Assembly (NCBI GenBank): GCA_040905465.1
Contig: JBBDRK010000004.1
Coordinates: forward strand, 3,970 to 47,919
DNA length: 43,950 nt
Direction of reading: 5' to 3'
DNA from: Trueperaceae bacterium
Lineage (GTDB): Bacteria > Deinococcota > Deinococci > Deinococcales > Trueperaceae
The position numbers and the translations under genes were made by a program. Under the pieces are notes generated by a model. That model was not told where the DNA came from, made no database searches, and saw nothing but the letters and a program-made list of their open reading frames with translations. Shown here piece by piece: positions 17,116-33,371 of the stretch (position 1 is its first letter; each line of letters opens with the position of its first letter).

Positions 17116-18072
17116 ATGCTGAACGAACGGCGATCCCGCATACTCGACCTGGTCGCCGAGTCGTACATTAGCTCGGCGCACCCGGTTCCGTCGTCGCAGG
17201 TCGCGGAACGCCTGAACGTGAGCAGCGCGACCATCAGGAACGAGTTCTCCGAGCTGGAAGAGAGCGGCTACTTGCAGCAGCCTCACACCTCGGCCGGGCG
17301 CATCCCCACCTCTCGCGGATTCCGGGCCTATACCCGGGCGCTCCTTCCTCCCGAGGGTCCGGAACCCAGCCAACTCCGCCTGATCCAGGATCGGTTGAAC
17401 GGCAAGCACGGCGATACCCTGCTCGAAACGATAGCGTTGCTGGCAGCGGACCTGTCCGGCTACGCAGTGGTGGTGCGACTGCCGGCCGACGAGACGCTCC
17501 ACGCCATCGAGATCCATCTGTCCGCCCTCTCCGCCAGCAAACTGTTGGCGGTCGTGGTTCTCGAGAACGGCCTGGTAAGGCAGCTGGTCGTCGATCTCGA
17601 CCCCACGCCCTCGGCCGACGTGATCACCGGCGCCGAGAGCAGCCTGCGGCAGCTCACGGTTCCCGTAGGAGAGATGCCTCGTGCGTTGGCGGCCCTCGCC
17701 CAGCGGGAGGTCGCCGACCTCGCCCGCACGCTCACGGCCCTCGCCGAAGCCTGGCCGGCGATGAACCCGCCCCGGTTGTTCTCGGGCGGCCTTCGCAACC
17801 TCCTGTCCGAGCCGGAGTCGCGCGATCCCGAGTTCCTGCGGCTGGTGGTCGAGCAGGTGGAAACCCCCGGCGAAGACTCCATCGACGGCGGGCTGGAGCT
17901 CTCGCTCGACGACTCGACGGCACGGATCAGGGCTCGGCTCGAGCTCGGACGCGGCTACGCCGGCCTTACCGTCGTCGGACCCGCACGAATGCGCTACCGC
18001 GAGGCGTTGCGCGTGGCGTGTGGCATCGCCGACACGCTCGCGCCCGGTAGCGCCGGAGTCTCCACCAACTGA
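17116..18072 (+). CDS. hrcA: Heat-inducible transcription repressor
   Basis: SSATIRNE, GYLQQPHTSAGRIPT, VVGPARMRY. Confidence 0.93.
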   Translation: MLNERRSRILDLVAESYISSAHPVPSSQVAERLNVSSATIRNEFSELEESGYLQQPHTSAGRIPTSRGFRAYTRALLPPEGPEPSQLRLIQDRLNGKHGDTLLETIALLAADLSGYAVVVRLPADETLHAIEIHLSALSASKLLAVVVLENGLVRQLVVDLDPTPSADVITGAESSLRQLTVPVGEMPRALAALAQREVADLARTLTALAEAWPAMNPPRLFSGGLRNLLSEPESRDPEFLRLVVEQVETPGEDSIDGGLELSLDDSTARIRARLELGRGYAGLTVVGPARMRYREALRVACGIADTLAPGSAGVSTN

Positions 18073-18226
18073 ACCGACGCGCGTCTCCGGCGCGCTTCCC
18101 AGAGGATTTTTCACACGCCCGGGTGGGCCGAAAACCTATCCTTGAGGTCTACCGTCGCGGCGCCTTGCCGACTGGTGGCGGAGACAGGACGCTTCATGGA
18201 TATGGGGACGAAAGTGTGGAGCGGCA

Positions 18227-19132
18227 TTGGGGGCACCCGTGCCGAATGAGGTCTTCCTGCGCACACGCGCGGGCCTCACCGCTCTGGTTTCGTCCCGGGC
18301 CGCGGGCCGCATCCTTGAAGGAGCGCTGAAGGGCAGCGGACACAACCCCGAAGACGTGAACCTGCCGCAGATGCGGAGCGCGCTTCTCGGGCCGGTGATG
18401 CACGAGCTCGAAGGGGTGTTGCCCCGGGCAGGGCTGCGGCGCAACCTCGAACGGCTGGCGCGAAGCCTTCGTTCGGCATCGGGCACGGTTGCCGGTCCTC
18501 AGGTGACGACCGAAGACACAGCGCCCCTGGAGCAACCCTACACGGGCACGGACGAGCCCGAATCGGACTCCGAGACGGCGGCTGGCGCCCGAGCGGAAGC
18601 GGCGCAGGGCCACGATGCAGCCGGGGAGACCGACTCTGGCCGCGCGGTAGGTGACGACGCCGAAGGTGCCGACGCCGAAGGTGACGACACGGAAGCCGGC
18701 GACAGCGAAACCGGCCGTCCGGCGGCCGAACCGGCACGAGTTCGGGCAGTCGCCGCCGACCCCGCCCCGGCGCCCGTCTCCGGCGCACCTGAACGCGGCC
18801 CACTGGCCACCGAGGATCTGGAACGACACGTCCAGAGGTTTGCCCAGATCGAACACGTGCGGTTGGTGAGCGTGATTCGCAGGGACGGTTCGGTCGCCGT
18901 AAGCCGCGGTGACGGACCCGACCCCGAGCTCCTGGCCCGCTTCAGCCGACTCGCCCTCACCCTGCTGGCGAAGGGCGGAGCCATCCGCCAGTTCCATCTG
19001 GGGCATACGGGCGGTCAGCTCTTTCTGTACCCGCTGGGACACGACCTCCTCGTGATAGTCGGAGGCGTAGAACTAAATCTGGGAACCATTACCACCGCAT
19101 TCACAGCGCTCGCGCTGGAGGAGGACCTATGA
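18227..19132 (+). CDS. Hypothetical protein: helical N-terminal domain, acidic linker, C-terminal Roadblock/LC7-like domain
   Basis: C-terminal pattern VRLVSVIRRDG...QFHLGHTGGQLFLYPLGHDLLVIVG..ELNLG fits the Roadblock fold; start TTG 18227 or GTG 18239. Confidence 0.7.
   Translation: MGAPVPNEVFLRTRAGLTALVSSRAAGRILEGALKGSGHNPEDVNLPQMRSALLGPVMHELEGVLPRAGLRRNLERLARSLRSASGTVAGPQVTTEDTAPLEQPYTGTDEPESDSETAAGARAEAAQGHDAAGETDSGRAVGDDAEGADAEGDDTEAGDSETGRPAAEPARVRAVAADPAPAPVSGAPERGPLATEDLERHVQRFAQIEHVRLVSVIRRDGSVAVSRGDGPDPELLARFSRLALTLLAKGGAIRQFHLGHTGGQLFLYPLGHDLLVIVGGVELNLGTITTAFTALALEEDL
18650..18709 (+). repeat. Degenerate 15-bp coding tandem repeat (x4)
   Basis: GGTGACGACGCCGAA/GGTGCCGACGCCGAA/GGTGACGACACGGAA/GCCGGCGACAGCGAA, encoding GDDAE-GADAE-GDDTE-AGDSE. 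Confidence 0.7.
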
Positions 19133-21264
19133 AACCCGCTCTTCGCCATATTGTTGTCTGCGCCCTGCTGCTTGTCGTCGGAATCGGCGCGCAGGCGCAA
19201 GGCGATGAGGTACTGGAGCGCTACGGGCTCGCACTCGCCAACCTGAGCGAGAGCTTACTGGCTCTCTCCAGCGACAGCACCGCCAGCCGTGACGAGCTCG
19301 ACCGGGCCGCGGGAGCGCTGCGGTTCATGGCCGCGAGCGCCGGAAGCCCGAACCTGGTCGAAGCGATGGAGCGGGTGTTCGAACGCGCGCGCAGCGCCAT
19401 CCAGAATCGTTCGGTCACCGACCTGGGCGTCCAGACTTCGCTCCTTGGCGGCGGCTTCCAGCGGGCCCTCTTCGACTCCGCCCTCGCCTTGCTGGAGGAT
19501 GAGCCGGCGACCGCGCTGACCCGGCTCGACAGGCTGGCCACCGATCTGGACTTCGACGATCAGACCAGGGCCGCACTGGCCGAAGCCGGCACCGACGCCG
19601 CGGCGATACGCCGCGAGTTCGAGGCCGCCGTCGCCGAACGGGTCGGCCAACAGCTCGAGCTGGCCGAGGAGCGGTACGCCCAGAGCCGGGATTCCGCATA
19701 CCGTACGCTGGCCGACGCCTATGGCGACTTCCTGCTGATCCAGGACTCTCCGCGCGCCGACGCCCGACTGAACGCCGCATTCGCCGCCGCCGCCGAAGAG
19801 CTGATAGCCGACCGTGGCGAAGAGATGAGCGCCCGCTTGCAGAGCCTGGCGCAGGGCTTCGACCGTCTCGCCGACGCCGCACGTTCGACCGTGCCGGAAT
19901 CCGACGGTGCCGCCGGTACCAATGGCACTACTCCCGGCGACGCGGTCGATCCGGCGAGCGGCTCGACCACAGGCGACGGCGACATACCGCGACAGGCGGC
20001 GGTCGGCGTCCAGGACGACGCAGCGAGAAACACGGCGGAAGGCGCAGGGCAAGACGCAGGGCAAGACGCTGTCACGGACGTTCCCCGACCGGCGGCCGAA
20101 CGAACCGTTGCGGGCACGCCGACCGGCGCAAACCAGGGCGAGGACGCCGGTGGTGAAACTGCTCCGAGCGACACTGCCGCGAACGAGGTTGCACGCAACG
20201 ACGTTGCTCGAGACGACGGTGCAGCAGCCGCCGCAATTCAAACCGGGGCAGCACCGGCCGGCGCCGTCAACGCGGGCCAGCAGGCCACCGGCGACAGCCC
20301 GCCGTCGGACACCGGAGCCGAAACCGGCGCCGAAGCCGGCGCTGTGGGCGTCACGGACAGCACCGACATGAACAGCGGCGTCACAAACAGCGCAGACACG
20401 ACCGCCTTACGCAGGGCGCTGGCACGCGAGCTGATCCTGGCGGGAGTGCCGGCGACGCAGGTGGAACGACTGGCGGAAGACTTGCAGGAGCGCGGGTTGG
20501 TCTCGCTCGGCGACCTCAGCGACGAGCTGTACACGTCGGCCGGACGCCTGGTGGCCGACATCCAGGCCGGCGACACGGCCTCGGCCGAGAGTCGCCTGTC
20601 GGAGCTGAGCGCCGGCTATGCGAGCTCGGTACGCCCACTGGTGGCGATTCTCTCCCCGGCGATCGACCGGCGCACGACCCAATTGATGGAGAAGCTCGCT
20701 GCCTCGTCGGTGCTCCGCACTCAGGACGCGCTGGTGCTGATCGGCCAGATCGAAGCGGTAGACAGGCTACTTGCAGGGAGCACTCCGGTCCGCACCCAGA
20801 TCGTCAACAGCGAGACCACCATCGTCTGGACCGGCTGGCTGCGACTGGTCACGCTCCTGACCCTCGCGCTACTCGCCGTCATCCCGCTGTTCCTGCTCAA
20901 CCTGGCGTTCGGCGGCGGAAACCGCAACTGGCAACTGATCGGCGTCGCCCTCTTCCTGCTGCTGCTTCCGGTCATTTACGAGGGCCTGGCCTCGCTGGCC
21001 TCGCTCGCCGCGGAGCTATTGGCTCTGCCGGTACTGTCGGCAGGCACCACGTTCTCGATGTTCGAGAGTCCGATCGGCCAGGTGGCCTGGGCGGCGGTCA
21101 CCGCGGCGGGCATCCTGTTCGCAAGTGCCGGACTGTACGGAATCTGTGTCCAGTTCGGCCTGCTGGGCGGCAGGCAGTCGAGAACCGGCGACTCTCAAAC
21201 GATGATCTCCGCCGCTCCGGGGGGAGACGCAGACACGGTCGTAGACTGGGACGAGGAGTTCTGA
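19129..21264 (+). CDS. Hypothetical exported membrane protein (signal peptide, helical domains, disordered linker, ~3 C-terminal TM helices)
   Basis: GGAGGAGG RBS; ATGA overlap with the upstream gene; signal peptide ending AQA; hydrophobic C-terminal segments; acidic tail VDWDEEF. Confidence 0.8.
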   Translation: MKPALRHIVVCALLLVVGIGAQAQGDEVLERYGLALANLSESLLALSSDSTASRDELDRAAGALRFMAASAGSPNLVEAMERVFERARSAIQNRSVTDLGVQTSLLGGGFQRALFDSALALLEDEPATALTRLDRLATDLDFDDQTRAALAEAGTDAAAIRREFEAAVAERVGQQLELAEERYAQSRDSAYRTLADAYGDFLLIQDSPRADARLNAAFAAAAEELIADRGEEMSARLQSLAQGFDRLADAARSTVPESDGAAGTNGTTPGDAVDPASGSTTGDGDIPRQAAVGVQDDAARNTAEGAGQDAGQDAVTDVPRPAAERTVAGTPTGANQGEDAGGETAPSDTAANEVARNDVARDDGAAAAAIQTGAAPAGAVNAGQQATGDSPPSDTGAETGAEAGAVGVTDSTDMNSGVTNSADTTALRRALARELILAGVPATQVERLAEDLQERGLVSLGDLSDELYTSAGRLVADIQAGDTASAESRLSELSAGYASSVRPLVAILSPAIDRRTTQLMEKLAASSVLRTQDALVLIGQIEAVDRLLAGSTPVRTQIVNSETTIVWTGWLRLVTLLTLALLAVIPLFLLNLAFGGGNRNWQLIGVALFLLLLPVIYEGLASLASLAAELLALPVLSAGTTFSMFESPIGQVAWAAVTAAGILFASAGLYGICVQFGLLGGRQSRTGDSQTMISAAPGGDADTVVDWDEEF
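20044..20067 (+). repeat. 12-bp coding tandem duplication
   Basis: GCAGGGCAAGAC x2 (AGQD-AGQD) in the low-complexity linker. Confidence 0.7.
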
Positions 21265-21439
21265 TCGGGGATTACAGCGGCAGGCGGCATGACGACCTGC
21301 CATAGTCCCGCGCTCCTGGCCCGGGCGCAGGGTCGCTGGCGGCTCGAAGTAACGAGGAGTAACCAGACTTGTTGATGGGGTCGGACAACCAAGCGAGCGC
21401 GATTTCGGCCGGTGCCGTCGAGCCGGCCGGAGGTGCGTC

Positions 21440-24196
21440 TTGAGCCCTAGCCCCCTCTATCAGGCGGCGGTATCCGAGCTCGAAGGCGTCCTCTCGCCGC
21501 GGGTCGTCTCGCGATCGCTGAAGGAGGGCATGCTGCAGGTAGGCAGCACGCCCGATGCGATCGAGCTGACGGAGCTGGAACGCATCCTCAAGGCGCAGAT
21601 CTACCGTCAGCTGCAGGTGGCGATGCCGCTCGAGCAGGCCAAGGAGACGATCTCGGGAATCCTCGAGCGGCTCCGTAGCCTCGAAACCGGAGGCAAGCCC
21701 CGCGACCCGACACCGGCACCGCTGGACGGCCAGCAGGTGGCCCTGGCCGAGTTGCAGGCGGCGATGCGTCCCTTCAACCTCTATTTCGAGTGGCCCGAAG
21801 TCCAGAAGTTGCGCGCTCAGATCCAGCTACTCGAAGGCGAGCAGTCCGCAGGCAGGGAGGCGGCCAGCCTCCTGCGTGACGCCCGCGAACAGCTGCGGTC
21901 CGTCGCTCAGAAGCTGGAGGACAGCCTGGTCATTCAGGCACGCGACCTCGGAGAGCTCGACGGCCTGCTCGAACAGGTCCGCAGCCTGGGGGGACCGAAA
22001 GTTCGGCGATTGGAGAACCTGCTGGGCCAGATTCGCGAGGCCCAGGACCAGCGTCAACTGGCGACCGCCGAGATCGAGCGCGCCCGAAAACTCGGCACCG
22101 ACCTGCGCAAGCTCCTCGAGTCCAGCGTTTTGGCCCAGAAGGAGCAGGCGCCGGCGGACGACACCGGGATCCTGGAGGTGGACGAGGACGAGCCACTTGC
22201 CGTGGTCCGCGACGTTGAAGAGGGCGTGAACGCGCGGTTGCTGATGATCGACCTGGAGAGCGAGCGCTTCGAGCTCGGATCGATCGAAAGCGGCCACGCG
22301 CACCTGTTGGAGCACCATCCGGAGTCGCGCGCCGAGATCGAGCGCCTCAGAGAAGCCGTGGACGCGGGAACACCGATTGGTGACGAGCTCGGCCCGCTGC
22401 GCGAACGGCTCGACAGGGCGTCCGAGGAGGCTCGAGTCGCTCTCAGCAAAGAGCTCGAGGCGATCGCCGATGACGCGCTGCGACTGCGGCAGCACTCGGA
22501 CGTCGGCGAGCTGAGCCAGGCGGTACAGGTGGCCCGCGGCGTGCTCGAGAAGTCGATTCCCGAACTCAACGACATAGCACACGTTCGCGACCTGCACGCC
22601 TTGGCCAGCGAACGCGCGCAAGCAGCGGAGAAGCTCGAGGAGGAGGCAGAGGCGGAGCGCCAGGCGAGACTGCGCGAGCAAGCGTCTGCGATAGCCAGGC
22701 TCGAGTCCACCGTTCAGGTGCACGGCGCCGACTCGTCGGCGGAGTTCGAGGCGCTCAAGGACGGCCTTTCGGCGCTCCGCGCGGCTCACGCCCAGGGCGA
22801 ACTCGTACCGGAGCTCCTTGCGGCGGTCAGGCGCTCGGAGGAGCGCTACCAGGCGGCCGCCGGAGCCGAGGAGTCCGGTGCCGGCGACCGGCCGGAAGCC
22901 CGGGCCCGCGCGCTGCTCGACGAGCTCGAAGCCTTGCCGCTGCTGCCCTCGCTGCGCGAGCGCGCCGGTGCCCTGGCCGGCAAGCTCTCGGCGCTACTCG
23001 TCGGCGGCGAGCGGGCCGGTCTCGAGGACGCCGCCGCGCGCCTGGAGGAGGGCGAGTTGATGCTCGCTGCCCTTCGAGTGGAGTTGCGCGACGCCTACCG
23101 CGAGCGCCTCCAGTCGGCGCGACGCGAGGCGCTCGAACTCGGTCAGGACGCAACCGCCGATACCCTCGAGCAGGCCGAGAGCAGGCTGGGCAAGGGGGAG
23201 TTTCCGAGGCTCCACGACATCGAGGCGGGCCTTCGCGGCGACGCCGACCGCCGCCGCCAGGAGGAGCTGACCGAGACCAGGGTCCTCGAGGCCGAGGCCG
23301 CCCGCTTCGCCGGCCTTGGCCTTTCTGGCTACGAGGAGCTCTGCAGCCTTATCGAGGAGGCCAAGGGGGCGCCGATGGGGAGTCGCACGGCGGCGCTCCT
23401 GGGCCGTGCCTGGTTGCAACTCGAGGCGCTGCGGGCGACCGTCGAGCAGCGACTGGCAGGCTTGGAGAGCCGCTTAGATGCTGCCCTGGCGGGGCTGGAA
23501 CGAGTCGAGAAGCTGAACAGCGAGGACGTCGAAGAGTCGCGCCGCATCCTTCACCACCTGCACGATCAGCGAGATTCGCTGGGGCGCGTCTCGTTGGGGC
23601 TGCGGCTGGAGCTGGAGTCGTCCCTACAGTGGGCCGAGTCGCTCCTGGCCAAGCTCCAGCAGGAGTACGAAGCCACCCGTGTTATCGCGGACCAGTTGGT
23701 GAGCGGCAACTTCATCGACGACATGCTCGGCCTGCTGGGCAGCGATCAGCCACGGCCGGAGGCCCCGTCGGACCAGATCGCGATCCCCGACCTGACTCCG
23801 GCAGAAACGGTGGAGACGCGCAGCGACAACCCGAAGCTCAACGCCTGGGTCGAGGGGTATCTGGCCGAGCAAGGCGTCTCGTCGTTGGCGCTGCTCGACC
23901 GCGAGGGAAAGATGGTGGCCGGCCGGTTGCAAGCGATCCCGGCCCAAGCAAGGTCGGGACTGGACCGGCTGATGACGGAACTCGACGCTCTCGGAGCCGA
24001 GCTGGGCCGCGGCGCCCCCCGGCTAGCCACGCTGGAAGCCGGCAACCGAGCGGTGATCGCAAGCCGACCCATAGGAAAGTATCGGTTGCTGGCCGTGCTC
24101 GACACCTCCTCCGCGCTCAGCCGGGTGCTGCACCGGCTGCGTGGCGAGCTCGCGCCGGGCAGCAACAAGACCAGCGGTGATTCTCCACTCTCTTGA
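21440..24196 (+). CDS. Hypothetical 918-aa coiled-coil protein with C-terminal Roadblock/LC7-like domain
   Basis: GGAGG RBS before TTG; long E/L/A/R heptad-rich body; C-terminus GVSSLALLDREG...RLATLEAGNRAVIASRPIGKYRLLAVL. Confidence 0.75.
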   Translation: MSPSPLYQAAVSELEGVLSPRVVSRSLKEGMLQVGSTPDAIELTELERILKAQIYRQLQVAMPLEQAKETISGILERLRSLETGGKPRDPTPAPLDGQQVALAELQAAMRPFNLYFEWPEVQKLRAQIQLLEGEQSAGREAASLLRDAREQLRSVAQKLEDSLVIQARDLGELDGLLEQVRSLGGPKVRRLENLLGQIREAQDQRQLATAEIERARKLGTDLRKLLESSVLAQKEQAPADDTGILEVDEDEPLAVVRDVEEGVNARLLMIDLESERFELGSIESGHAHLLEHHPESRAEIERLREAVDAGTPIGDELGPLRERLDRASEEARVALSKELEAIADDALRLRQHSDVGELSQAVQVARGVLEKSIPELNDIAHVRDLHALASERAQAAEKLEEEAEAERQARLREQASAIARLESTVQVHGADSSAEFEALKDGLSALRAAHAQGELVPELLAAVRRSEERYQAAAGAEESGAGDRPEARARALLDELEALPLLPSLRERAGALAGKLSALLVGGERAGLEDAAARLEEGELMLAALRVELRDAYRERLQSARREALELGQDATADTLEQAESRLGKGEFPRLHDIEAGLRGDADRRRQEELTETRVLEAEAARFAGLGLSGYEELCSLIEEAKGAPMGSRTAALLGRAWLQLEALRATVEQRLAGLESRLDAALAGLERVEKLNSEDVEESRRILHHLHDQRDSLGRVSLGLRLELESSLQWAESLLAKLQQEYEATRVIADQLVSGNFIDDMLGLLGSDQPRPEAPSDQIAIPDLTPAETVETRSDNPKLNAWVEGYLAEQGVSSLALLDREGKMVAGRLQAIPAQARSGLDRLMTELDALGAELGRGAPRLATLEAGNRAVIASRPIGKYRLLAVLDTSSALSRVLHRLRGELAPGSNKTSGDSPLS

Positions 24197-24617
24197 GGAA
24201 ACTCGGGAGCTCGCGGCGCTGTTGGTAGAGCGGACCGCGCCGGGTGACCTCCTGCTTCTCGCCGGTCCGCTCGGTGCGGGCAAGACCACGCTCACCAGCC
24301 TGATAGCCGAGGAGCTGAACAGCGATGCACAGGTTTCCAGCCCCACCTACACGCTGGTACACGAGTACCCAACGCCGGCAGGACTGCTGGTGCACATAGA
24401 CGCCTTCCGTCTCGCCGACCACGCAGCGCTGAACCAGCTCGGCCCATTGGGTCACATCGGCCTCGACGACTATCTGGACCGGGCCAGGCTGGTGGTAGTG
24501 GAGTGGGGCGAAGCACTCGCAAAGCAGTACCCTGAGGCCTGGTTGGTGCGGCTCGAGCGCGACGGAGAGCGTCGTGAAGCGAGCATACGGCCCCCGAACA
24601 CGCCGGCAGGCGGATGA
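24177..24617 (+). CDS. tsaE: tRNA t6A biosynthesis ATPase
   Basis: GPLGAGKTT, VSSPTYTLVHEY, HIDAFRL, VEWGE; GTG start overlaps the upstream gene end (start uncertain). Confidence 0.92.
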   Translation: MILHSLEETRELAALLVERTAPGDLLLLAGPLGAGKTTLTSLIAEELNSDAQVSSPTYTLVHEYPTPAGLLVHIDAFRLADHAALNQLGPLGHIGLDDYLDRARLVVVEWGEALAKQYPEAWLVRLERDGERREASIRPPNTPAGG

Positions 24618-25186
24618 GCGGGTCGTTCGCCAGCGGTCTTTACCTGGGTCTGGATACCGCCACCCCGTACCTGGCAGTCGCCGTCTGCTCGGCGCAAGGT
24701 AGCGTGCTGGCGGCCACGACCGAACTGGTGGAGCGCCGACACGCCGCCCGTCTGATCTCGGCGCTGGAAGAAACGCTGGCGGATGCCGGAGTCGAACGAA
24801 CCTCCCTCGCCGCCATCGCCTGCGGAATAGGTCCCGGTTCCTATACCGGCCTGCGGGTGGGCGTTGCCGGCGCACTCGGCCTGGCGCGGTCGCTCGCTGT
24901 GCCCCTGGCCGGCTGTGACACCCTGGCGGCCGTTGCTTTCGGAGCGCTCGAGGACGACGAGGAGGGGCTGGCGACTCTCGATGCCCGCCGCGGGAACCTC
25001 TACGTGGGGCGTTACCGTCGACAGGGACAGGACATCGTCACCCTGGCAAGCCCCCGCAAGGTCGAACGCCAGTCACTACTCGAGCAGCACCCCGGGATGC
25101 GCCTCATCGAGAACCGGCCCCCCGACCCCGGCTTCGTGGCCCGACAGGCAGGGGGCACGGCGCCCTTCACGCCGGTCTACCTGTGA
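24614..25186 (+). CDS. tsaB: tRNA t6A biosynthesis protein
   Basis: LGLDTAT, GIGPGSYTGLRVG, DARRG; ATGA overlap with tsaE. Confidence 0.92.
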   Translation: MSGSFASGLYLGLDTATPYLAVAVCSAQGSVLAATTELVERRHAARLISALEETLADAGVERTSLAAIACGIGPGSYTGLRVGVAGALGLARSLAVPLAGCDTLAAVAFGALEDDEEGLATLDARRGNLYVGRYRRQGQDIVTLASPRKVERQSLLEQHPGMRLIENRPPDPGFVARQAGGTAPFTPVYL

Positions 25187-25253
25187 ACGGACCACCGCCG
25201 TCAGGAGAAGGGGGGGAGAGAAGTTCCTATCGTAAGCATGAGTAAGCTGACGT

Positions 25254-25259
25254 TATACT
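25254..25259 (+). promoter_or_regulatory. Candidate -10 element (TATACT) for the mreB-lpx transcript
   Basis: Near-consensus hexamer in the AT-richer patch of the tsaB-mreB spacer. Confidence 0.5.
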
Positions 25260-25334
25260 GCGCTGGTTGCAAGCCCGGCTCCGGCGGGCGTTTCCCCGGC
25301 CGGCCCCCCAAACGTGGCACGTGATGGAGTGACG

Positions 25335-26369
25335 ATGTTGAGACCCTGGCAGGAAATCGGTGTGGACCTCGGGACGGCCACCGTCCTCATCTATGTCAAA
25401 GGCAAAGGTATCAAGCTGCGCGAACCGTCGGTGATCGCCATGGTTCGCGATACCGGCGACATGAAAGCTGTCGGCGACGAGGCCTACCGCATGCTCGGCC
25501 GCACGCCCGGCAACATCGTTGCGGTCCGCCCTATGCGCGACGGCGTGATAGCCGACTACGACCTGACCGAGAAGATGCTCAAGGCCTTCGTTCGCAAGGT
25601 CATAACCGGTCCCGGCCGGCTCTTCAAACCGCATATCATGGTGTGCGTTCCTTCGGGGGTGACCGAGGTCGAGCGGCGGGCGGTGCTGCAGGCAACGCGC
25701 GAGGTCGGCGCCCGCAAGGCGTTCCTCATCGAGGAGCCGCTGGCAGCGGCGATCGGTGCCGGCGTGCGCATCGCCGAACCCACCGGCTCGATGATCGTAG
25801 ACATCGGCGGCGGCACCACCGACGTCGCCATCATCAGTCTCGGCGGCATCGTGGTGTCGGAATCGCTGCGCATCGCCGGCAACGAGTTCGACGAGGCGAT
25901 AATCCGCTACATCCGCCACAAGGAGAACATGCTCATCGGTGACCGCACGGCCGAGGACGTCAAGATGAAAGTCGGCGCGGCCGTGGTTCGCGGGCCGGAC
26001 GACGTGCGGGACATGGAAGTGCGTGGGCGTGACCTGATCAACGGCCTTCCCAAGACCATCAAGGTGACCACCGAAGACACCGTCGAGGCTCTCCAGGAGC
26101 CCCTGCAGAAGATTTCCGACGGCGTGCGCCGGGTGCTCGAGCTGGCGCCCCCCGAACTGGTGAGTGACGTTATCGACCGCGGGATCATCATGACCGGCGG
26201 TGGTTCGTTGCTGCGCAACTTCGACGAACTGCTGCGGCAGTCAACCGGCATACCGGTTGCCGTCGCCGACAACGCAATAGACGCCGTCGCGCTGGGCACA
26301 GGCCAGGCGCTCGACATGATCCCCGTTCTGCAGGACGCGCTGATCTCCGACAACTTCCTCCGTCGCTGA
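25335..26369 (+). CDS. mreB: Rod shape-determining protein MreB
   Basis: IGVDLGTA, EEPLAAAIGAG, VDIGGGTTD, MTGGGSLL; ATG 25335 with GGAG RBS. Confidence 0.96.
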   Translation: MLRPWQEIGVDLGTATVLIYVKGKGIKLREPSVIAMVRDTGDMKAVGDEAYRMLGRTPGNIVAVRPMRDGVIADYDLTEKMLKAFVRKVITGPGRLFKPHIMVCVPSGVTEVERRAVLQATREVGARKAFLIEEPLAAAIGAGVRIAEPTGSMIVDIGGGTTDVAIISLGGIVVSESLRIAGNEFDEAIIRYIRHKENMLIGDRTAEDVKMKVGAAVVRGPDDVRDMEVRGRDLINGLPKTIKVTTEDTVEALQEPLQKISDGVRRVLELAPPELVSDVIDRGIIMTGGGSLLRNFDELLRQSTGIPVAVADNAIDAVALGTGQALDMIPVLQDALISDNFLRR

Positions 26370-26435: not shown

Positions 26436-27467
26436 ATGACCGGAAACCGCGGCCGCACCTTCCACGCCCGTGAGCTGGCGGATCGGCTGGCGGGCGAGTT
26501 GGACGGCCCCGATCTGACGGTCGCAAGGCTCGCGCGCCCCGGTCCTGGCTGCGACGGCGCGGTAGTGGTGCTCTTCGAGCCCCGCCAGGAGGCGGCGCTG
26601 TCGGGGACACGTCCCGCCGTGATAGTTGCGCCTCTCGGACTGGCCCGTCCGTCCGAAGCAGACGCCCTGATCCGGGTTGCCGATCCGCGCCTTGCGCTGG
26701 TTCAACTGACGTCGATGTTCGATGACAGGCCCCTGCCTCAACCCGGCATTCACCCCAGTGCCAGCGTGGCGCCGGACGCACTGATCGGCGCCGGGGCCCG
26801 CGTTGCCGCCGGCGCCGTCGTCGCCGCTGGTGCCCGCATCGGCAACGCGACGATAGTCGGTGAACGGGTGGTGGTGGGTGCCGGGTCGGTGGTCGGAGCC
26901 GAGTGCCGCCTGCATGCCGGCGCCACGCTCGCCGACGGAGTGCAGCTGGGCGATAGGGTGATAATCCAAAGTGGCGCCGTACTGGGCAGCGACGGTTTCG
27001 GCTACGTTCCCTCGCCGCGTGGCGCCGCCAAGCTCAGGCACCTGGGATCGGTGATAGTAGCCGACGACGTGGAGATAGGCGCCAATACCTGCGTCGATAG
27101 GGGCACCCTGGGGGACACCTTCATTGGAACGCGCAGCAAGATCGACAACCTGTGCCAGATCGCCCACAACGTCCAGATCGGAAGCGATTGCCTGATCGCC
27201 GGGCAGTGCGGTATCGCCGGTTCCACACGGATCGGCGACCGTGTAACGGTGGCCGGCGGCGTTGGCGTCGGGGACCATCTGGAAATAGGCGACGGCGCCG
27301 TCCTCGGGCCGCGGGCGGCAGTGCTGAAGAGCGTTCCGGCGGGAGAAACCTGGCTGGGCTACCCGGCTCGGCCGTACAAGCGCTTCACCCGTGAGTCGTA
27401 CCTCATTGGCCGGCTCGAGCGCATTTGGCGCTTCGTGCGGCAGAACGAAGGGAATGACGAGGAGTGA
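26436..27467 (+). CDS. lpxD: UDP-3-O-acylglucosamine N-acyltransferase
   Basis: Hexapeptide repeats; GSDGFGY, EIGANTCVDRG, KIDNLCQIAHNV. Confidence 0.92.
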   Translation: MTGNRGRTFHARELADRLAGELDGPDLTVARLARPGPGCDGAVVVLFEPRQEAALSGTRPAVIVAPLGLARPSEADALIRVADPRLALVQLTSMFDDRPLPQPGIHPSASVAPDALIGAGARVAAGAVVAAGARIGNATIVGERVVVGAGSVVGAECRLHAGATLADGVQLGDRVIIQSGAVLGSDGFGYVPSPRGAAKLRHLGSVIVADDVEIGANTCVDRGTLGDTFIGTRSKIDNLCQIAHNVQIGSDCLIAGQCGIAGSTRIGDRVTVAGGVGVGDHLEIGDGAVLGPRAAVLKSVPAGETWLGYPARPYKRFTRESYLIGRLERIWRFVRQNEGNDEE

Positions 27468-28243
27468 TCTCGGGTATCGGCATCCATGGCGGGGCGCCAT
27501 GCCGGGTGAGGCTGCACCGCAGCGAGGGTGCCCTTCGTTTTCGCCGGGGAGCGCTGGAGATACCCGCAGAGGTCGGTGCGGTGGTGTCCACCGAGCGGTG
27601 CGTGGTGCTGGCGGCCGGTGCAGCGCGCGTTGCCACAGTCGAACATCTGTTGGCGGCATTGGCGCTCGCCGGTTTCTGGTCCGGCGTGGTGGTGGAGGCG
27701 GACAGCGATGAGCTGCCGATCCTCGACGGATCGGCGGTTCCCTGGAGCGAGGAGATCGCCGGTCTCGGCGAGCCGCCGGTCGCTCCGGCGCCGATCGAAC
27801 CGGCTCAGCCGCTAAGCGTGTCTCTCGGCTCGGCGTCGGCCGAGTTGATCCCCGGCGCCAGCGCCCTCGACGTGAGCGTGGAGTACCCGCATCCGGCCAT
27901 CGGGCGCCAGCGCTGGTACGGCGGGCCGGAATGTTGGCACGAACTGCTGGACGCCCGCACTTTCGGCTTCCTGGCTGAGCTGCAGACGCTGCATGCGGCA
28001 GGACTGGCGGCCGGGGCTGACACCGAAAATGCTATTGTCTTTGATGACGATGGGCCGTTGCGCCCACTTCGTCATGTCGATGAGCCGGTGCGGCACAAGG
28101 CGCTCGATCTCCTCGGCGACATGGCCCTGCTGGGCCGTCCGCTGAGTGCCGAAGTTCGCGTGTACCGCGGTTCGCACCGGTTGCACGTGAATCTTATGCG
28201 CCATCTACTTCGCCTTCAACCACACCAGGAAGCAACAGCGTGA
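27464..28243 (+). CDS. lpxC: UDP-3-O-acyl-GlcNAc deacetylase
   Basis: GIGIHGG, TVEHLLAAL, ELPILDGSA, ARTFGF, RHKALDLLGD. Confidence 0.93.
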   Translation: MISGIGIHGGAPCRVRLHRSEGALRFRRGALEIPAEVGAVVSTERCVVLAAGAARVATVEHLLAALALAGFWSGVVVEADSDELPILDGSAVPWSEEIAGLGEPPVAPAPIEPAQPLSVSLGSASAELIPGASALDVSVEYPHPAIGRQRWYGGPECWHELLDARTFGFLAELQTLHAAGLAAGADTENAIVFDDDGPLRPLRHVDEPVRHKALDLLGDMALLGRPLSAEVRVYRGSHRLHVNLMRHLLRLQPHQEATA

Positions 28244-29196
28244 CCCCACTGAGAGTAGCGGTCGTGGGTGCCGGCGTGATGGGCAACTATCACGCGGCCA
28301 ACTACGCCGCTCTTCCACAGGCGAAGCTGGTGGCGGTGGTCGACCCGGACCCGGAGCGACGTGCCGAAGCCGCAGCGGCGTTCGGTTGCCGCGCCTACGG
28401 CGACGTCGAGGCGATGCTGGCGGTCGAAAAGATCGACGCCGCCTCAGTGGCCGCTCCTACCGCGATGCACTACCGTCTCTCCCGGCAACTGCTGGAAGCG
28501 GGCGTGCACGTGCTCGTCGAGAAGCCCGTTGCCACCGACGTCGAGCAGGCCCTGAGCCTGATGGAGCTCAGCAAGCTCATGGGCGTCGTCCTGCAGGTCG
28601 GTCACATAACCCGCTTCTACCGTGCGGTCCACGCCCTCTCGGAAGAGGTCAGGCACCCGTACCTGATCGAGGCCCGGCGGCTCACACCGTCTGCCCGCAT
28701 CAAGGATGTCGGCGTGATACTCGACCTGATGATCCACGACATCGACATCATCCTGCGAATAGTCTCCGCTCCGGTTCAGAGCGTGTCGGTGGCGGGGCAT
28801 ATGCTCAACGGAAGTCCCTTCGAGGATGTCGCCGCCGCCCAGATAGTCTTCGAGAACGGCTGCATCGCCCGGTTGCTCGCCAGTCGCGTGGCGCCGGACC
28901 AGGAACGCAGCCTGCTGGTGAGCGAAGCGAGCCAGACCGTGAGGCTCGACTTCGCCCGTGAGCCCCAGACCGAAGTGACCATCTACCGAATGTTGTCGGC
29001 GAACGGTCACGCCGCCCAGGTAGACCGGCGGACCGTCCAGGAGGACAACCCGCTGCGCATGGAGCTCGAGCACTTCCTGGCGCGCATCGGCAACGCAGCC
29101 CAGCCCATCGGCACTCTCGAGGACGACCTCCGCTCGATCGAGCTGGCGACCCGCCTGCTGGCCGAGATGGAGCTGCGCCGGCCGGCCCTGGCCTGA
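28240..29196 (+). CDS. Gfo/Idh/MocA oxidoreductase (GnnA-like UDP-GlcNAc 3-dehydrogenase candidate)
   Basis: VVGAGVMG, HVLVEKP, DLMIHDID; coupled to lpxC by a GTGA overlap. Confidence 0.85.
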   Translation: MTPLRVAVVGAGVMGNYHAANYAALPQAKLVAVVDPDPERRAEAAAAFGCRAYGDVEAMLAVEKIDAASVAAPTAMHYRLSRQLLEAGVHVLVEKPVATDVEQALSLMELSKLMGVVLQVGHITRFYRAVHALSEEVRHPYLIEARRLTPSARIKDVGVILDLMIHDIDIILRIVSAPVQSVSVAGHMLNGSPFEDVAAAQIVFENGCIARLLASRVAPDQERSLLVSEASQTVRLDFAREPQTEVTIYRMLSANGHAAQVDRRTVQEDNPLRMELEHFLARIGNAAQPIGTLEDDLRSIELATRLLAEMELRRPALA

Positions 29197-29219
29197 GGGC
29201 GATCCGCTAGACTGCTGCC

Positions 29220-29639
29220 ATGGATGTCGACCTTTACGCCATTCTTCCGCACCGCTACCCGTTCCTGATGGTCGACGCGTTCGTTTCCCAGGAGGGCGAC
29301 CGTTTCGAATGCCTCAAGAACGTCTCCAACAACGAGCCCTTCTTCCAGGGCCACTTCCCCGGCGAGCCGGTGATGCCGGGTGTAATGATCGTGGAGGCGC
29401 TGGCTCAGGCCGCGGCGGTGGGCTTGGCGGTTCGTGAAGGTCGAGAGGACGGACAGGTCGGCTATCTGGCCGCGGTCGATTCGGCGAAATTCCGGCGGAA
29501 GGTGCTGCCCGGGGACAGCCTGCGCCTCACCGGCGAGATCCTGCTGTTCCGGCGCGGCCTCTGCAAGGTCAGTGCGGTAGCGCTGGTGGGGGATGAAGTG
29601 GCCGCCGAGGCTACGCTGTCGTTCGTGTTTGCGAGATGA
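29220..29639 (+). CDS. fabZ: 3-hydroxyacyl-ACP dehydratase
   Basis: LPHRYPFLMVD, FFQGHFPGEPVMPGV..EALAQ. Confidence 0.95.
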   Translation: MDVDLYAILPHRYPFLMVDAFVSQEGDRFECLKNVSNNEPFFQGHFPGEPVMPGVMIVEALAQAAAVGLAVREGREDGQVGYLAAVDSAKFRRKVLPGDSLRLTGEILLFRRGLCKVSAVALVGDEVAAEATLSFVFAR

Positions 29640-30415
29640 CGGTAAGAGCACTGATAGACCGTAGCGCGGTCGTGAGTCCGGCCGCGCAACTGGCCGACGG
29701 AGTGGAGATCGGCCCGTTCGCGGTGATCGAAGCGGACGTAACGATAGGCCCCGGCTCGGCAGTGCTGGCCGGGAGCGTGCTTCATTCGGGATCGCGCGTC
29801 GGAAGCGACTGCCGAATCGGGCCCTACGCCATGGTCGGGGGCCTGCCCATGGACAGCGCCTTTCGCGGCGAACCGTCGTCGACCGTGCTGGGCGACCGCG
29901 TAGTCCTCCGGGAGTTCGTGACCGTTCACCGGGCGACCGGCGAGGGCGAGGCCACCCGGGTGGGAGACGACACCCTGGTGATGAGCTACGCGCACGTGTC
30001 CCACAACGTTCAGGTAGGTGCCGGCTGCACCCTGACCACCTCGGTTCAGCTGGGCGGCCACTGCCGGGTGGACGATCGTGCTGTCCTGGGCGCCAACGCC
30101 ATCCTCCATCAGTACTGCCGGGTAGGTCGTCTGGCGATGTTCGGAGCCGGTTCCGGGTCCAATCGCGACGTGCTGCCCTTTCTCATGGCTCGCGGCAACC
30201 CGGCTCGTCACTATCGACTGAATCGGATCGGACTGCAGCGCAACGGCATCGACGGCGAGCGCTACCGAGTACTGGAGCGGGCCGTGCGGGCGCTGCGAAG
30301 ACGCGACCGTACCGCTCTCGCCGAGCTTGCTCGCGTCAGCACCGAGGTACGGTCGATCGAGGAGTTCGTCGAGTCCAGCAGGCGCGGAGTGAACCGCTTC
30401 GTCGGGAGCGATTGA
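29636..30415 (+). CDS. lpxA: Acyl-ACP--UDP-GlcNAc acyltransferase
   Basis: Hexapeptide repeats; REFVTVHRAT, YAHVSHN, HQYCRVG, LNRIGLQR. Confidence 0.93.
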   Translation: MTVRALIDRSAVVSPAAQLADGVEIGPFAVIEADVTIGPGSAVLAGSVLHSGSRVGSDCRIGPYAMVGGLPMDSAFRGEPSSTVLGDRVVLREFVTVHRATGEGEATRVGDDTLVMSYAHVSHNVQVGAGCTLTTSVQLGGHCRVDDRAVLGANAILHQYCRVGRLAMFGAGSGSNRDVLPFLMARGNPARHYRLNRIGLQRNGIDGERYRVLERAVRALRRRDRTALAELARVSTEVRSIEEFVESSRRGVNRFVGSD

Positions 30416-30418
30416 CCG

Positions 30419-31627
30419 GTGGCAGCCACCATCGTGCTGGTAAGCAACGGACCAGGTGAACTACACACCTGGGTGCGACCGGTGCTCGACGAGCTGCGCC
30501 GCCGGGCGCCCGGGTTGCGCGTGGTCATCAGCCTCATCCCCTGCCAGTTCGCAAGCGGCGGTGAGAGCCAAGCCGCGCGATCGTTCGAGCCCGACGGGGT
30601 GACCACACCGGCCCAGTACCTCCGGCTGGTTGCGGGCGGGCGCCCGCCCGCCGAGTTCGGTGACGAGGTGGCGGCGGTAGTGAGCCTGGGCGGAAGCGTC
30701 GGAATGGCCGTGCGACTGGCCGACCGGCTCGGCAGCTGTGTCTACCGGTACTCGTTCGTACCCTACTGGCATCGACGGTTGGAAACGCTGTTCGTGCACG
30801 ACGAACGGGCGTATCGCAAAGCCCGGCTGCTGGGAGCCCCCGGAGGACGCCTCGAGATAGTCGGCAACCTCGTCGCCGATGCGGTGGCGGCGAGCCGGCC
30901 GGTAGAGGATGCGGGCCGGCCGCATGTGCTGCTGCTTCCGGGTAGCCGCGACGGTTTCGCCATCCACCTGATCCCGTTCATGATCGCTTTGGCCGACAGG
31001 ATCCACGCCGACTTCCCGGCCGCGCGCTTCGTGTGGCCGCTGTCGCGGCTGCTGCGGGCCGAGACGCTCGCGGAGGGCGTGAGCGGTGTCGAGAGAGCCA
31101 CGCTCGGCGGCGTCGCCGGGCGGCGCGAGGGGAACACGGTCGTGGCGCCGGAGGGTGCACGCATCGAGCTGGTAGCGGAAGAGGAACGTTACCGGCAGAT
31201 GGCCAGTGCCGACCTGGCGGTCACCATCCCCGGCACCAATACCCTCGAGCTGGGCGTGGCCGGCGTTCCCTCGATCGTGGTGCTGCCGCTCAACCGGCCG
31301 GAAGTGATTCCGCTGGAGGGCCCGGGACACTGGCTGTCGCTGCTGCCGCTGGTGGGGATCCCGCTCAAGCGCCGCGCCGTGCGGCTGTTCGTGGAGCGCC
31401 TGTCGTACCCGGTGTCGCTGCCCAACCAGCTCACGGGCGAGGACCTGATGGTGGAACTGCGCGGAACAATCGATCCGGCAGGCGTGGCGGAGCGGGCGAT
31501 TGCGCTACTCGAGGACCCGCAAGACCTGGCTCGCCGCCGCGAGCGCCTGCTGGCGGCCATGCCGCAGCCGGGGGCCGCCGCCAGGGTTGCCGAACGTGTT
31601 CTGGCCTCTCTGCCTGCACATGTCTGA
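30419..31627 (+). CDS. lpxB: Lipid-A-disaccharide synthase-like GT-B glycosyltransferase (divergent LpxB)
   Basis: SNGPGE N-terminus, VGNL, LLPGSR, GTNTLELG, SLPN; position after lpxA. Confidence 0.75.
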   Translation: MAATIVLVSNGPGELHTWVRPVLDELRRRAPGLRVVISLIPCQFASGGESQAARSFEPDGVTTPAQYLRLVAGGRPPAEFGDEVAAVVSLGGSVGMAVRLADRLGSCVYRYSFVPYWHRRLETLFVHDERAYRKARLLGAPGGRLEIVGNLVADAVAASRPVEDAGRPHVLLLPGSRDGFAIHLIPFMIALADRIHADFPAARFVWPLSRLLRAETLAEGVSGVERATLGGVAGRREGNTVVAPEGARIELVAEEERYRQMASADLAVTIPGTNTLELGVAGVPSIVVLPLNRPEVIPLEGPGHWLSLLPLVGIPLKRRAVRLFVERLSYPVSLPNQLTGEDLMVELRGTIDPAGVAERAIALLEDPQDLARRRERLLAAMPQPGAAARVAERVLASLPAHV

Positions 31628-33371
31628 GTTGCCGCCGCTCCTGCTGCCGCGCACGCCTCCGGCAATCGCCGGCCTGCTGGCGGCGCTGGTGAACGCCGCC
31701 ATGCGCGTCGCCGTCATTCCACTGTTCGTGACGCCACTGATCGACCGGGTGGTGGGGCAAGGACGGCTCGAGGCTCTGGCGCCGCTTCTGGCATTGGCGG
31801 CGCTGCTGGTGGTGGCGGGAAGCCTGGCGCTCTGGGCCCAGGACGCTCTGTTGGGACGAGCCGCCGCCATCAACGCCGCGAGTTGGCGCGAAGCGCTCTA
31901 CCGGCGGCTGTTGCGGCGGTCTCCGGGCAGGCTTCCCGGGACCAGCGGAGGACTGGCCTCACGCGTCCTGCATGACCTGCGCGAGGTCGAAACCTTTCAC
32001 CAGTTCGGCCTCGGCACGCTGGTTGCCGAGAGCTTCACGGTGCTGGGTATTCTGGCGGTGCTGGGCGCCACCAACGCGTCGGCAACCGCCCTGCTGGTGG
32101 CGCTGTGCCTGCCGTTGGTCATCGTGCTTCGTGCCGTCGGCGTGCGGCTCGAAGCGGTGGCGAAACGCTCGCAGGCGAGCACCGAGGAGCTCGGCACCCA
32201 CCTGCAGGAGGGTCTACGGCACCACGAGACGGTGCGGGCGTTCGACGCTACCGGCTTCATGCTCGGCCGCTTCGGCGAAGTGAACCGGCGCACGGCCTCG
32301 GCAATGAGCAGGCGCAGCGCCCTGGCGGCACTCCAGATACCGGCAACCCAAGTGCTGGCGTTCGCCGCCCTGGGAGCGTTGGTGGCGGTCCTGGCGGCCA
32401 GCGCCGCACAGGGTGGGATGACCGTCGGCGAGATAGTCTCCTTCATCACCCTGGTCGCCCTGCTCTCCACCCCGGCTCAACTCCTCCCGCGGGGCATCGC
32501 CATGGCTCAGCAGGCCGGCGCCGCCGCGAAGCGGCTGCGTGAGCTGGCAGAACTGGAGCCGGCCGCCAAGGGCGCTCCGTCCGGAGATCGTCGGCCTGGT
32601 GGAGCCGTTGCCGCGCGTTCGGCGGCCAACCTGGAGCTGCGCGGAGTCGAGGTCGGCCACGGCGCAGAGCCGCTGCTGCGGGGCGTCGACATGCGCCTTG
32701 CCGGCCCGGGCCTCGCCGTGCTGGTGGGCGAAAGCGGAAGCGGCAAGACCACTCTCCTGCGCCTGCTGCTGCGCTTCCACCCGCTCGAGCGGGGCGAGGT
32801 GCTGCTGGGCGGCAAGCCGCTGGCGGCCTGGCCGGAGGGCGAACTCCGGCGAGCGGTTGCCTACGTGGCCCAGGGGCACGAGCTGTTGCGCGGAACGGTG
32901 CGCGATAACCTTGCCCTGGGGCGAAACGTCGACGACGAGCAACTCTGGCGAGTGCTCGCCGAGGTGCAACTTGCCACGGTAGTCGACAGGCTGCCGGCCG
33001 GGCTCGACTACCGGCTGGGCGAAGACGGCGGCGGGCTCTCGGGGGGCCAGCGTCAACGACTGGCGCTGGCGCGGGCGCTGCTGAGCGACCCGGCCGTTCT
33101 GCTGCTCGACGAACCCACCTCCAACCTCGACGAGGGCGCCGAAACGGAGCTGGTGGCGCTGTTGCAGAGGCAGGCCGTCGACCGGCTGGTGCTGGCCGCG
33201 ACCCATCGTCCGGCATTGAGCGACGCGGCAGAGCGGTCTTGGCGCGTGTCGGCAGGCAGTGTGCGTGAACTGGGCGATGCCGTTGACGGTTCGGCTGAGG
33301 ACTCGATTGACGAGGACGGTGACGGGAGCGGCGGGAACCCCGGCGGCGCCGGTGCCGAGGTGAGCCGGTGA
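31620..33371 (+). CDS. ABC exporter, fused TMD-NBD (MsbA-like)
   Basis: N-terminal TM domain; GESGSGKT, LSGGQRQR, LLDEPT, H-loop; ATG 31620 overlaps the lpxB end. Confidence 0.85.
   Translation: MSELPPLLLPRTPPAIAGLLAALVNAAMRVAVIPLFVTPLIDRVVGQGRLEALAPLLALAALLVVAGSLALWAQDALLGRAAAINAASWREALYRRLLRRSPGRLPGTSGGLASRVLHDLREVETFHQFGLGTLVAESFTVLGILAVLGATNASATALLVALCLPLVIVLRAVGVRLEAVAKRSQASTEELGTHLQEGLRHHETVRAFDATGFMLGRFGEVNRRTASAMSRRSALAALQIPATQVLAFAALGALVAVLAASAAQGGMTVGEIVSFITLVALLSTPAQLLPRGIAMAQQAGAAAKRLRELAELEPAAKGAPSGDRRPGGAVAARSAANLELRGVEVGHGAEPLLRGVDMRLAGPGLAVLVGESGSGKTTLLRLLLRFHPLERGEVLLGGKPLAAWPEGELRRAVAYVAQGHELLRGTVRDNLALGRNVDDEQLWRVLAEVQLATVVDRLPAGLDYRLGEDGGGLSGGQRQRLALARALLSDPAVLLLDEPTSNLDEGAETELVALLQRQAVDRLVLAATHRPALSDAAERSWRVSAGSVRELGDAVDGSAEDSIDEDGDGSGGNPGGAGAEVSR

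Follow-up and report, generated by a model that had tools for sequence, protein, structure and literature searches.

Roadblock-fold proteins accompany small GTPases in several described systems: MglB with MglA in Thermus thermophilus and Myxococcus xanthus (PDB 3t12, 1j3w, 6izw); MglC, a second Roadblock protein that acts on MglA/MglB without being a GTPase-activating protein; the Streptomyces conservon (CvnA-D), a membrane-associated complex of a Roadblock protein and a small GTPase; and the Ragulator complex (LAMTOR1-5), which serves the Rag GTPases on lysosomes. Mutants of T. thermophilus in mglA or mglB reportedly show altered pilus localization, and the mechanism of the polar pilus bias in this bacterium is described as unclear (PMC12024867 and PMC12393216, which cite Salzer et al. 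2015 for the mutants). Here we describe a three-gene locus, A-B-C, in a 43,950-nucleotide stretch of the genome of a Trueperaceae bacterium of the phylum Deinococcota (contig C4:3970-47919, hereafter the window; the source genome comprises 3.53 Mb in 81 contigs). Genes A and C encode proteins with predicted C-terminal Roadblock domains, gene B encodes a predicted exported membrane protein, and, across the phylum, C is present and lost together with MglA and MglB. With somewhat less than even confidence, we propose that in Deinococcota the products of A, B and C make up a membrane-anchored Roadblock scaffold, which acts together with the MglA/MglB small-GTPase switch encoded at another site of the genome. 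The available text of a survey of prokaryotic MglA and MglB, which assigns the MglA proteins of Deinococcus and Thermus to its groups 1 and 5, makes no mention of partners of this kind (PMC4316618).

The comparison with these systems shows both shared and distinct traits. The predicted Roadblock folds of A and C superpose on MglB, and C, as well as A with the exception of a single genome (G051), is present or absent together with MglA and MglB. Unlike MglB, A and C carry a four-helix N-terminal domain, to which C adds a conserved domain and a rod of more than 500 residues; A and C go with a membrane protein, their genes in no case adjoin mglA, and the genome encodes a separate, true MglB. MglC resembles A and C as an additional Roadblock protein (the A domain matches MglC 7cy1_A with a Z-score of 10.1) and, together with RomR, RomX and RomY of Myxococcus, offers a parallel to the polar-landmark logic of the proposed A-B-C platform; it differs in being a small, soluble, single-domain protein that lacks a membrane partner and a rod and whose sequence has no detectable relation to A or C. 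For the conservon, the Roadblock chains 3kye and 3leq match A with Z-scores of 13.5 and 12.6, but a conservon operon encodes CvnA, which resembles a sensor kinase, along with a DUF742 protein and a GTPase of its own, none of which is found in the A-B-C locus, where the neighbors are hrcA and tsaE/tsaB/mreB. Ragulator shares with the proposed scaffold the use of anchored Roadblock heterodimers as a platform for small GTPases (the pairing of A with C being presumed), and LAMTOR chains are the top structural matches of A (Foldseek, 6ehr_B, E 6.8e-6); however, Ragulator is eukaryotic, and its anchor is a lipidated peptide rather than a polytopic exported protein like B; the resemblance is one of design only.

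Architecture of the A, B and C proteins

The three genes and the domains of their products are as follows (residue numbers refer to the respective protein; evidence in brackets).

18227..19132, plus strand: gene A, putative cytoplasmic adaptor, open reading frame (ORF) of 301 residues counted from TTG 18227; probable true start GTG 18239 (19 database homologues, both ends conserved)
18239..18481, plus strand: A N-domain, residues 5-85, arginine-rich, homologous to the C N-domain (four helices predicted by AlphaFold2, AF2)
18482..18787, plus strand: A linker, residues 86-187, variable, acidic, predicted to be disordered
18788..19129, plus strand: A predicted Roadblock domain, residues 188-301 (AF2, Foldseek, VIA-align)
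19129..19132, plus strand: ATGA overlap of the A stop and B start codons (read directly from the sequence)
19129..21264, plus strand: gene B, ORF of 711 residues (154 database homologues; profile matched in 294 of 301 genomes of the phylum)
19129..19200, plus strand: B signal-peptide-like segment, residues 1-24, with presumed cleavage (hydrophobic 1-26, ending AQAQG)
19201..19893, plus strand: B putative exported N-terminal helical domain, residues 25-255 (invariant GG..R and QDS motifs)
19894..20403, plus strand: B low-complexity spacer, residues 256-425 (unalignable, of variable length)
20404..20817, plus strand: B second predicted helical domain, residues 426-563 (conserved alignment block)
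20818..21168, plus strand: B three predicted transmembrane (TM) segments, residues 564-680 (hydropathy; invariant AFGG.N.NW loop and GL.GIC.QFGL.G motif)
21169..21261, plus strand: B predicted cytoplasmic tail, residues 681-711, ending DWDEEF (W707 and D708 invariant)
21440..24196, plus strand: gene C, ORF of 918 residues with a TTG start and GGAGG 7 nucleotides upstream (234 database homologues; 286 of 301 genomes of the phylum)
21440..21694, plus strand: C N-domain, residues 1-85 (hhalign to the A N-domain; cross-matches by tblastn and hidden Markov model, HMM)
21737..22129, plus strand: C conserved helical domain, residues 100-230, outside known families (invariant residues over five families)
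22130..23749, plus strand: C variable helical rod, residues 231-770 (composition, patchy periodicity, variable length)
23807..24154, plus strand: C predicted Roadblock domain, residues 790-905 (AF2, Foldseek, profile match to a Roadblock ORF)

The C-terminal domains of A and C are both predicted to adopt the alpha-beta-beta-alpha-beta-beta-beta-alpha topology that defines the Roadblock superfamily. In the AF2 model of A, built on an alignment of 19 homologues, helices at 195-206, 233-248 and 285-299 and strands at 211-217, 223-228, 256-260, 263-270 and 273-279 have a predicted local distance difference test score (pLDDT) of about 85-94; the model of C, built from an alignment of the last 150 residues from 38 loci, shows the same topology (pLDDT 89.8, predicted template modelling score 0.79). 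Foldseek searches against PDB yielded 110 matches of A and 90 of the C domain with E≤1e-3, led by Asgard Roadblock proteins, MglB of Myxococcus and Thermus, and LAMTOR/MP1-p14. For A, the LAMTOR chain cited above is followed by the Asgard Roadblock protein 7yh1_A (9.1e-6), and the matches of C include 9jue_C (9e-6), MglB 6izw_C (1.4e-5) and T. thermophilus MglB 1j3w_C (4.3e-5). VIA-align superposed A on 7yh1_D (Z-score 14.9, root-mean-square deviation 2.2, 108 residues aligned) and on MglB 6hjm_A and 3t1r_A (Z-scores of 13.6 and 12.4); matches of the Roadblock domain took up the list for A. At the sequence level, C is linked to a verified member of the superfamily: the HMM of its Roadblock domain matches, over positions 4-120, a 147-residue ORF of the same genome (C35:16155-16595, E 4e-6) that itself scores 53.7 bits on Pfam Robl_LC7. 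No such profile link was seen for A. Among 27 C orthologues, two gave weak matches to Robl_LC7 (best E 0.0032), and a score of 21.6 bits was reached in one genome.

The N-terminal domains of A and C are homologous, and the two proteins, neither of which contains a hydrophobic segment, are paralogous. Alignment of the A profile (19 sequences) with the C profile (109 of 120 homologues, those 850-1000 residues long) by hhalign matched 79 columns end to end with 93.6% probability (E 2.2e-7), and in two relatives the ORF in the A position matches the C N-terminus by tblastn (E 3.5e-6 and 2e-7), in agreement with the HMM cross-matches; BLASTP found no relationship between A and C. Four helices are predicted in the A domain (7-20, 23-37, 46-64 and 67-85; pLDDT about 60-80), which contains five invariant arginines (R12, R14, R24, R28 and R72). 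In the alignment of the A homologues, the N-terminal 80 and C-terminal 110 residues are conserved, and the acidic linker between them is unalignable and variable in length; in the model, pLDDT is below 50 over residues 85-187, with a composition dominated by A, G, E and D (23, 12, 12 and 11%, respectively).

In C, the best-conserved part over the five families of the phylum is the region of about residues 100-230, with W118, E120, R125, L159, L163, Q166, R190, L207, E211 and R214 invariant, for which no relative was found in PDB or Pfam. An Atlas structure search with the shared N-domain and with C residues 95-240 returned clusters of Deinococcota orthologues along with weak helical look-alikes and, for the C domain, the orthologue cluster only. 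The rod that follows is helical by composition (L 16, A 15, E 14 and R 10%), with 13 prolines between residues 120 and 770 and a heptad-like (3.5-residue) periodicity that is strong in patches only; the length of C varies between families from about 650 to 1200 residues. Beyond these relationships, Pfam and NCBIfam contain no family matched by A, B or C, no consistent family emerged from a Pfam scan of 27 C and 35 B orthologues, and profile searches of PDB gave no relative of the N-terminal part of C, an unrelated best match for A (E 0.53) and, for B, only a designed helical protein aligned with the low-complexity part (E 2.6e-4).

Judging from sequence, B is helical and exported, and an anchor of three predicted C-terminal TM helices keeps it in the inner membrane. 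Conservation was read from an alignment of 35 homologues (A3), in all of which the signal-like start is conserved in kind; G108, G109, R112, Q205, D206 and S207 are invariant in the N-terminal domain, and the spacer is rich in A, G, T, D and P (A 22, G 15, T 12 and D 12%). The hydrophobic segments span residues 564-598, 601-638 and 652-680. We infer an N-out/C-in topology with a cytoplasmic tail because a signal peptide is followed by three TM segments, with basic residues in the loop and after TM3. A motif consisting of a tryptophan with acidic residues closes the protein in 120 of the 121 database homologues.

Gene A ends in the ATGA from which B starts, and the two genes are translationally coupled through this overlap, immediately 5' of which lies GGAGGAGG. 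Because the A homologues begin with M/V-PNEVF, the true start of A is probably GTG 18239. The first-pass annotation, made from the sequence of the window, had delineated the three ORFs with these coordinates and lengths and the A-B overlap, and had described B as exported and anchored by C-terminal TM helices, a view that the signal-like and the three hydrophobic segments bear out. It had also assigned A and C a common plan of an N-terminal helical domain, a spacer and a Roadblock-like C-terminus, with an acidic, disordered linker in A; the homology of the N-domains, the agreement of AF2, Foldseek and VIA-align on the C-termini, and the low pLDDT of the A/G/E/D-rich linker all support this description. 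Its depiction of the C spacer as a coiled coil of about 700 residues needs correction: this region is not uniform, given the conserved domain at 100-230 and the patchy heptads.

Joint presence and loss with MglA and MglB

The first-pass annotation had further described the module as lacking a GTPase. This is true of the window, where no MglA-like sequence was detected (best tblastn E 2.3), but not of the genome: contig C57 carries a canonical mglB-mglA operon (L060:1707-2815), located between an ORF of 188 residues without a family and gcvT. The MglB encoded there scores 210.3 bits on the NCBIfam equivalog model NF052242 and matches PDB 3t1r with E 6.5e-49, and the MglA matches T. thermophilus MglA (3t12_A) with E 2.9e-99. 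No second MglA-like gene was found in this genome: a weak MglA-like match on contig C54 is Obg, and searches for Ras and GPN-loop families returned only large translation-type GTPases or nothing above the cut-off. The genome also encodes, on contig C35 (L059:7153-8398, minus strand), three small tandem Roadblock/LC7 genes whose neighbors encode a PP2C phosphatase and an NHL-repeat Ser/Thr kinase. Two genomes of another family have a tandem trio like this one, and in the family of the source genome the trio is gone from the same genomes that lost MglA/MglB, A and C.

We surveyed 301 genomes of the Deinococcus-Thermus phylum that fall into five families (f1-f5, with f1 being the family of the source genome). 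C was detected with a single-protein query in 286 genomes and MglA in 284; both were found in 281 genomes, C alone in 5, MglA alone in 3, and neither in 12. The presence and absence of C track those of the MglA/MglB pair in this sample (Fisher p 2.9e-15, which is an overstatement because related genomes are not independent). The 12 double-negative genomes lack C also by a five-family profile and lack MglB by its family model, and 11 of them are 94-99% complete; in one, the search for C met only an A-like ORF of 250 residues. Half of the eight discordant genomes show signs of assembly breaks or decay in the matches themselves: MglB cut at a contig end in one, a fragment of C in another, a contig that ends just after B in a third, and, in a fourth that lacks MglA/MglB, a C split into three frames with a stop. 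The other four are 80-85% complete; in two of these, 32 kb and 395 kb of sequence lay outside the analysis, and the remaining two are 83-85% complete.

Where the locus could be read, the loss takes several forms. In four f1 genomes, A and C are cleanly excised, leaving the order hrcA-B'-tsaE-tsaB-mreB, and the remaining B' has neither the GGGNRNW loop nor the GICVQFGLLG motif nor the tryptophan-acidic tail. In three genomes of one f2 genus, B is reduced to the exported N-domain (250-325 residues, two of the three with an internal stop) directly before tsaE. The f2 genome G051 has kept A and B (tail TDWDDEVS) and lost only C, with tsaE beginning about 115 nucleotides after B. Separately, an f4 genome (G196:C24:17685-20504), in which MglA and MglB were not found, has all three genes broken: the A-like ORF is in pieces, B is spread over two frames and contains a TGA, and C is spread over three and contains a TAG. 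The locus seems to have been caught in the course of decay.

In a GuaA tree of 29 genomes (G264 and G161, in which GuaA was not matched, were left out), the distribution of losses requires five changes, at least two of which are forced by well-supported branches; beyond the genomes in this tree, the losses involve two genera of the second family and the decaying locus in a third family. Loss of pili as the cause of the co-loss was considered and rejected because 9 of the 12 double-negative genomes retain a PilT that scores above the family cut-off. A third PilT paralogue is encoded in the source genome (C10:40828-41850, E about 1e-125) and in the four searched genomes of genus g6 that have MglA/MglB and C (G210, G230, G280 and G285); a search of the four g6 genomes without MglA/MglB, A and C did not find it. 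No such pattern was seen in the second family.

The A profile was matched in 146 of the 301 genomes, outside f1 mostly through the N-domain alone. Among the 20 genomes from which a 20-kb region was compared, 13 have A-B-C contiguous (5 of 6 in f1, 6 of 6 in f2, 2 of 2 in f4), and tsaE directly follows C in 12. In f3 and f5, C stands apart from A-B. In one locus of f3, the Thermus/Meiothermus-type family, C lies between a gene for an MscS-like channel and relA/spoT, with no tsaE nearby, and in the three f3/f5 loci examined by HMM, A and B are paired away from C; in two further Thermus-type loci, an A-like ORF beside B was recognized by a weak HMM match (E 0.38 and 0.1) together with its architecture. 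A-B is thus the constant pair, and C a frequent neighbor, adjoining it in three of the five families. The co-conservation of the three genes, which had been proposed for checking, is borne out in this form. In the sixth f1 locus, A was not found and B is partial. A short form of the module occurs in one f1 genome (L049): C is only about 650 residues long, B is represented only by its N-terminal part (a frame of 450 residues), and A was not found, although MglA is present.

Out of 1.84 billion representative proteins, a profile of C residues 1-245 matched only 254 (E≤1e-3), and among 10 weak matches that were looked up, the one cluster with a taxon name belonged to Deinococcales. Proteins identical to translations of the compared loci are recorded under Thermus, Meiothermus, Deinococcus and Truepera as hypothetical, uncharacterized, coiled-coil or cytoplasmic proteins; in JGI records, the label of chromosome segregation protein is given to many C homologues, and that of Roadblock/LC7/MglB family to some homologues of A and C. 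The orthologues carry no assigned function, and the full texts searched on Roadblock/MglB, on Thermus MglA and pili and on Deinococcus MglA contained no description of A, B or C.

In the window, the module is preceded by hrcA (17116-18072) and followed by tsaE-tsaB-mreB (24141-26369). Its placement just upstream of the latter genes, pointed out in the first-pass annotation, recurs in three families and fails in the Thermus/Meiothermus-type family, and in itself carries no functional evidence. If started at GTG 24141, the tsaE ORF overlaps the last 56 bases of C (24141-24196); the real tsaE start may be downstream. A scan of positions 17900-24700 detected no promoter-like sites and two terminator-like sites, both on the other strand and with no excess over shuffled sequences. 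Right after mreB (26436-33371), the window contains a lipid A run consisting of lpxD, lpxC, a gene for a GFO/IDH/MocA oxidoreductase, lpxA, and genes for an LpxB-like protein and an MsbA-like ABC exporter. The best-known genera of the phylum are usually described as lacking lipopolysaccharide, which makes this run worth recording.

Alternative explanations

Several observations weigh against a scaffold that works with MglA/MglB. On the side of the proteins, neither A nor C reaches the gathering threshold of Pfam PF03259 (23 bits), with nothing at E≤1, neither matches the MglB model NF052242 (equivalog cut-off of 200 bits), and the A and C Roadblock profiles resemble each other only weakly (hhalign 22%, E 9.4e-4). 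On the side of the genomes, in the complete contigs compared, the module never adjoins mglBA but lies hundreds of kilobases away, so that A and C do not show the coupling to mglA within a few genes that would be expected of an MglB gene; B persists in 9 of the 12 double-negative genomes, so that some part of it, at the least, functions in the absence of A, C and MglA/MglB. The count of 12 would become 11 without G251, an unpublished assembly in 390 contigs with an almost full-length B, where the missing C may be an assembly gap. Furthermore, related genomes are not independent, and within the source family the strongly supported branches of the GuaA tree, which is built from one gene, force only two of the losses. 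In this family, the genomes with the losses also lack every Roadblock gene detectable by Pfam; therefore, the partner of the module need not be MglA/MglB itself. Among all 12 double-negative genomes, Pfam Roadblock genes are absent in eight, one more has a sub-threshold match, and the f2 genus keeps two. The co-loss could also arise if all of these genes depend on some third feature, for example, polarity or lifestyle. Co-folding of the A and C Roadblock domains with MglA and GTP, with MglA as the scored partner, gave an ipSAE of 0.00 in both runs, which lacked controls, and counts neither way.

Much of this evidence fits a scaffold or landmark of the envelope that is independent of any GTPase, as the first-pass annotation had proposed, where B would tie the envelope to the A/C Roadblock dimer and the rod and thereby organize the division site, the nucleoid or envelope biogenesis, with MglA/MglB lost in parallel. 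The lack of mglBA next to the module in every locus examined, the distance of A and C from MglB in sequence, the survival of B beyond A, C and MglA/MglB in 9 of 12 genomes and the loss of other Roadblock genes in the same genomes of the source family all favor this explanation, but parallel loss is hard to square with a match in presence and absence that has almost no exceptions when assembly breaks are discounted, and with a co-loss that recurs in separate lineages while the pilus ATPase genes stay; we consider it unlikely, though far from negligible. An improbable explanation is that the module belongs to cell shape and the cell wall, with C as a cytoskeletal rod and B as a periplasmic link to peptidoglycan synthesis, in association with MreB, encoded three genes downstream. 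MglA connects to MreB in Myxococcus, and the order C-tsaE-tsaB-mreB is found in the window and in five other loci of the source family; yet no mreB was found in any of 14 loci (20 kb each) from the second, third and fourth families, which retain the module, and the gene stays put in the genomes that excised A and C.

Two further readings are contradicted by the f3 gene order and by the domain content of the proteins. That the module is a partner system of TsaE, the ATPase of tRNA t6A synthesis, is very improbable: the position of tsaE directly after C in 12 of 20 loci, and the overlap of the two ORFs in the window, are the only tie to tsaE that we found, and they are offset by the Thermus-type location of C, without tsaE in the vicinity, by the retention of tsaE, abutting B', where A and C were deleted, and by the fact that TsaE is universal and the module lineage-specific and dispensable. 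Still less credible is C as a chromosome segregation protein of the SMC type, as the JGI label and the long helical region would have it, since C contains no SMC head, hinge or ATPase domain, matches no Pfam family (none consistently among the 27 orthologues) and is terminated by a four-helix domain at one end and a Roadblock fold at the other.

Proposed mechanism and implications

Two observations argue that A, B and C work with MglA/MglB: C and the cytoplasmic features of B go where MglA/MglB go, as does A in all the loci read but one (G051), and it is the exported part of B that survives the losses. It is from this co-loss that we infer binding. In the proposed scaffold, the basic N-domains of A and C would dock on the cytoplasmic face of B, that is, on the tail, the TM1-TM2 loop or both, and the Roadblock domains of A and C would pair, as Roadblock domains do. 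The helical rod of C would hold the resulting platform at a distance, and the platform would recruit or regulate either MglA-GTP or the dimer of MglB at particular places on the membrane; the likely output would be the placement of MglA-dependent machines, for example, type IV pili at the pole. The exported N-domain of B would have a further role of its own. A bolder version, possible but doubtful, is that A-B-C is the missing membrane receptor of MglA/MglB in Deinococcota and a bacterial counterpart of Ragulator: the acidic, tryptophan-containing tail of B would hold A and C, the Roadblock heterodimer would capture MglA-GTP or MglB and fix the GTPase cycle to sites in the envelope, setting the polarity of pili or other machines, and the rod of C would serve as a spacer or ruler.

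The locus adds three protein families without a Pfam model, namely, the N-domain shared by A and C, the conserved domain of C, and B. The genomes in which the partners disappear where the MglA/MglB switch disappears amount to a natural experiment. A, B and C are three concrete, conserved candidate partners of MglA/MglB in genetically tractable organisms. If the proposal is true, they would represent a bacterial case of Roadblock domains tethered to the membrane by a dedicated anchor, an arrangement otherwise known from the eukaryotic Ragulator.

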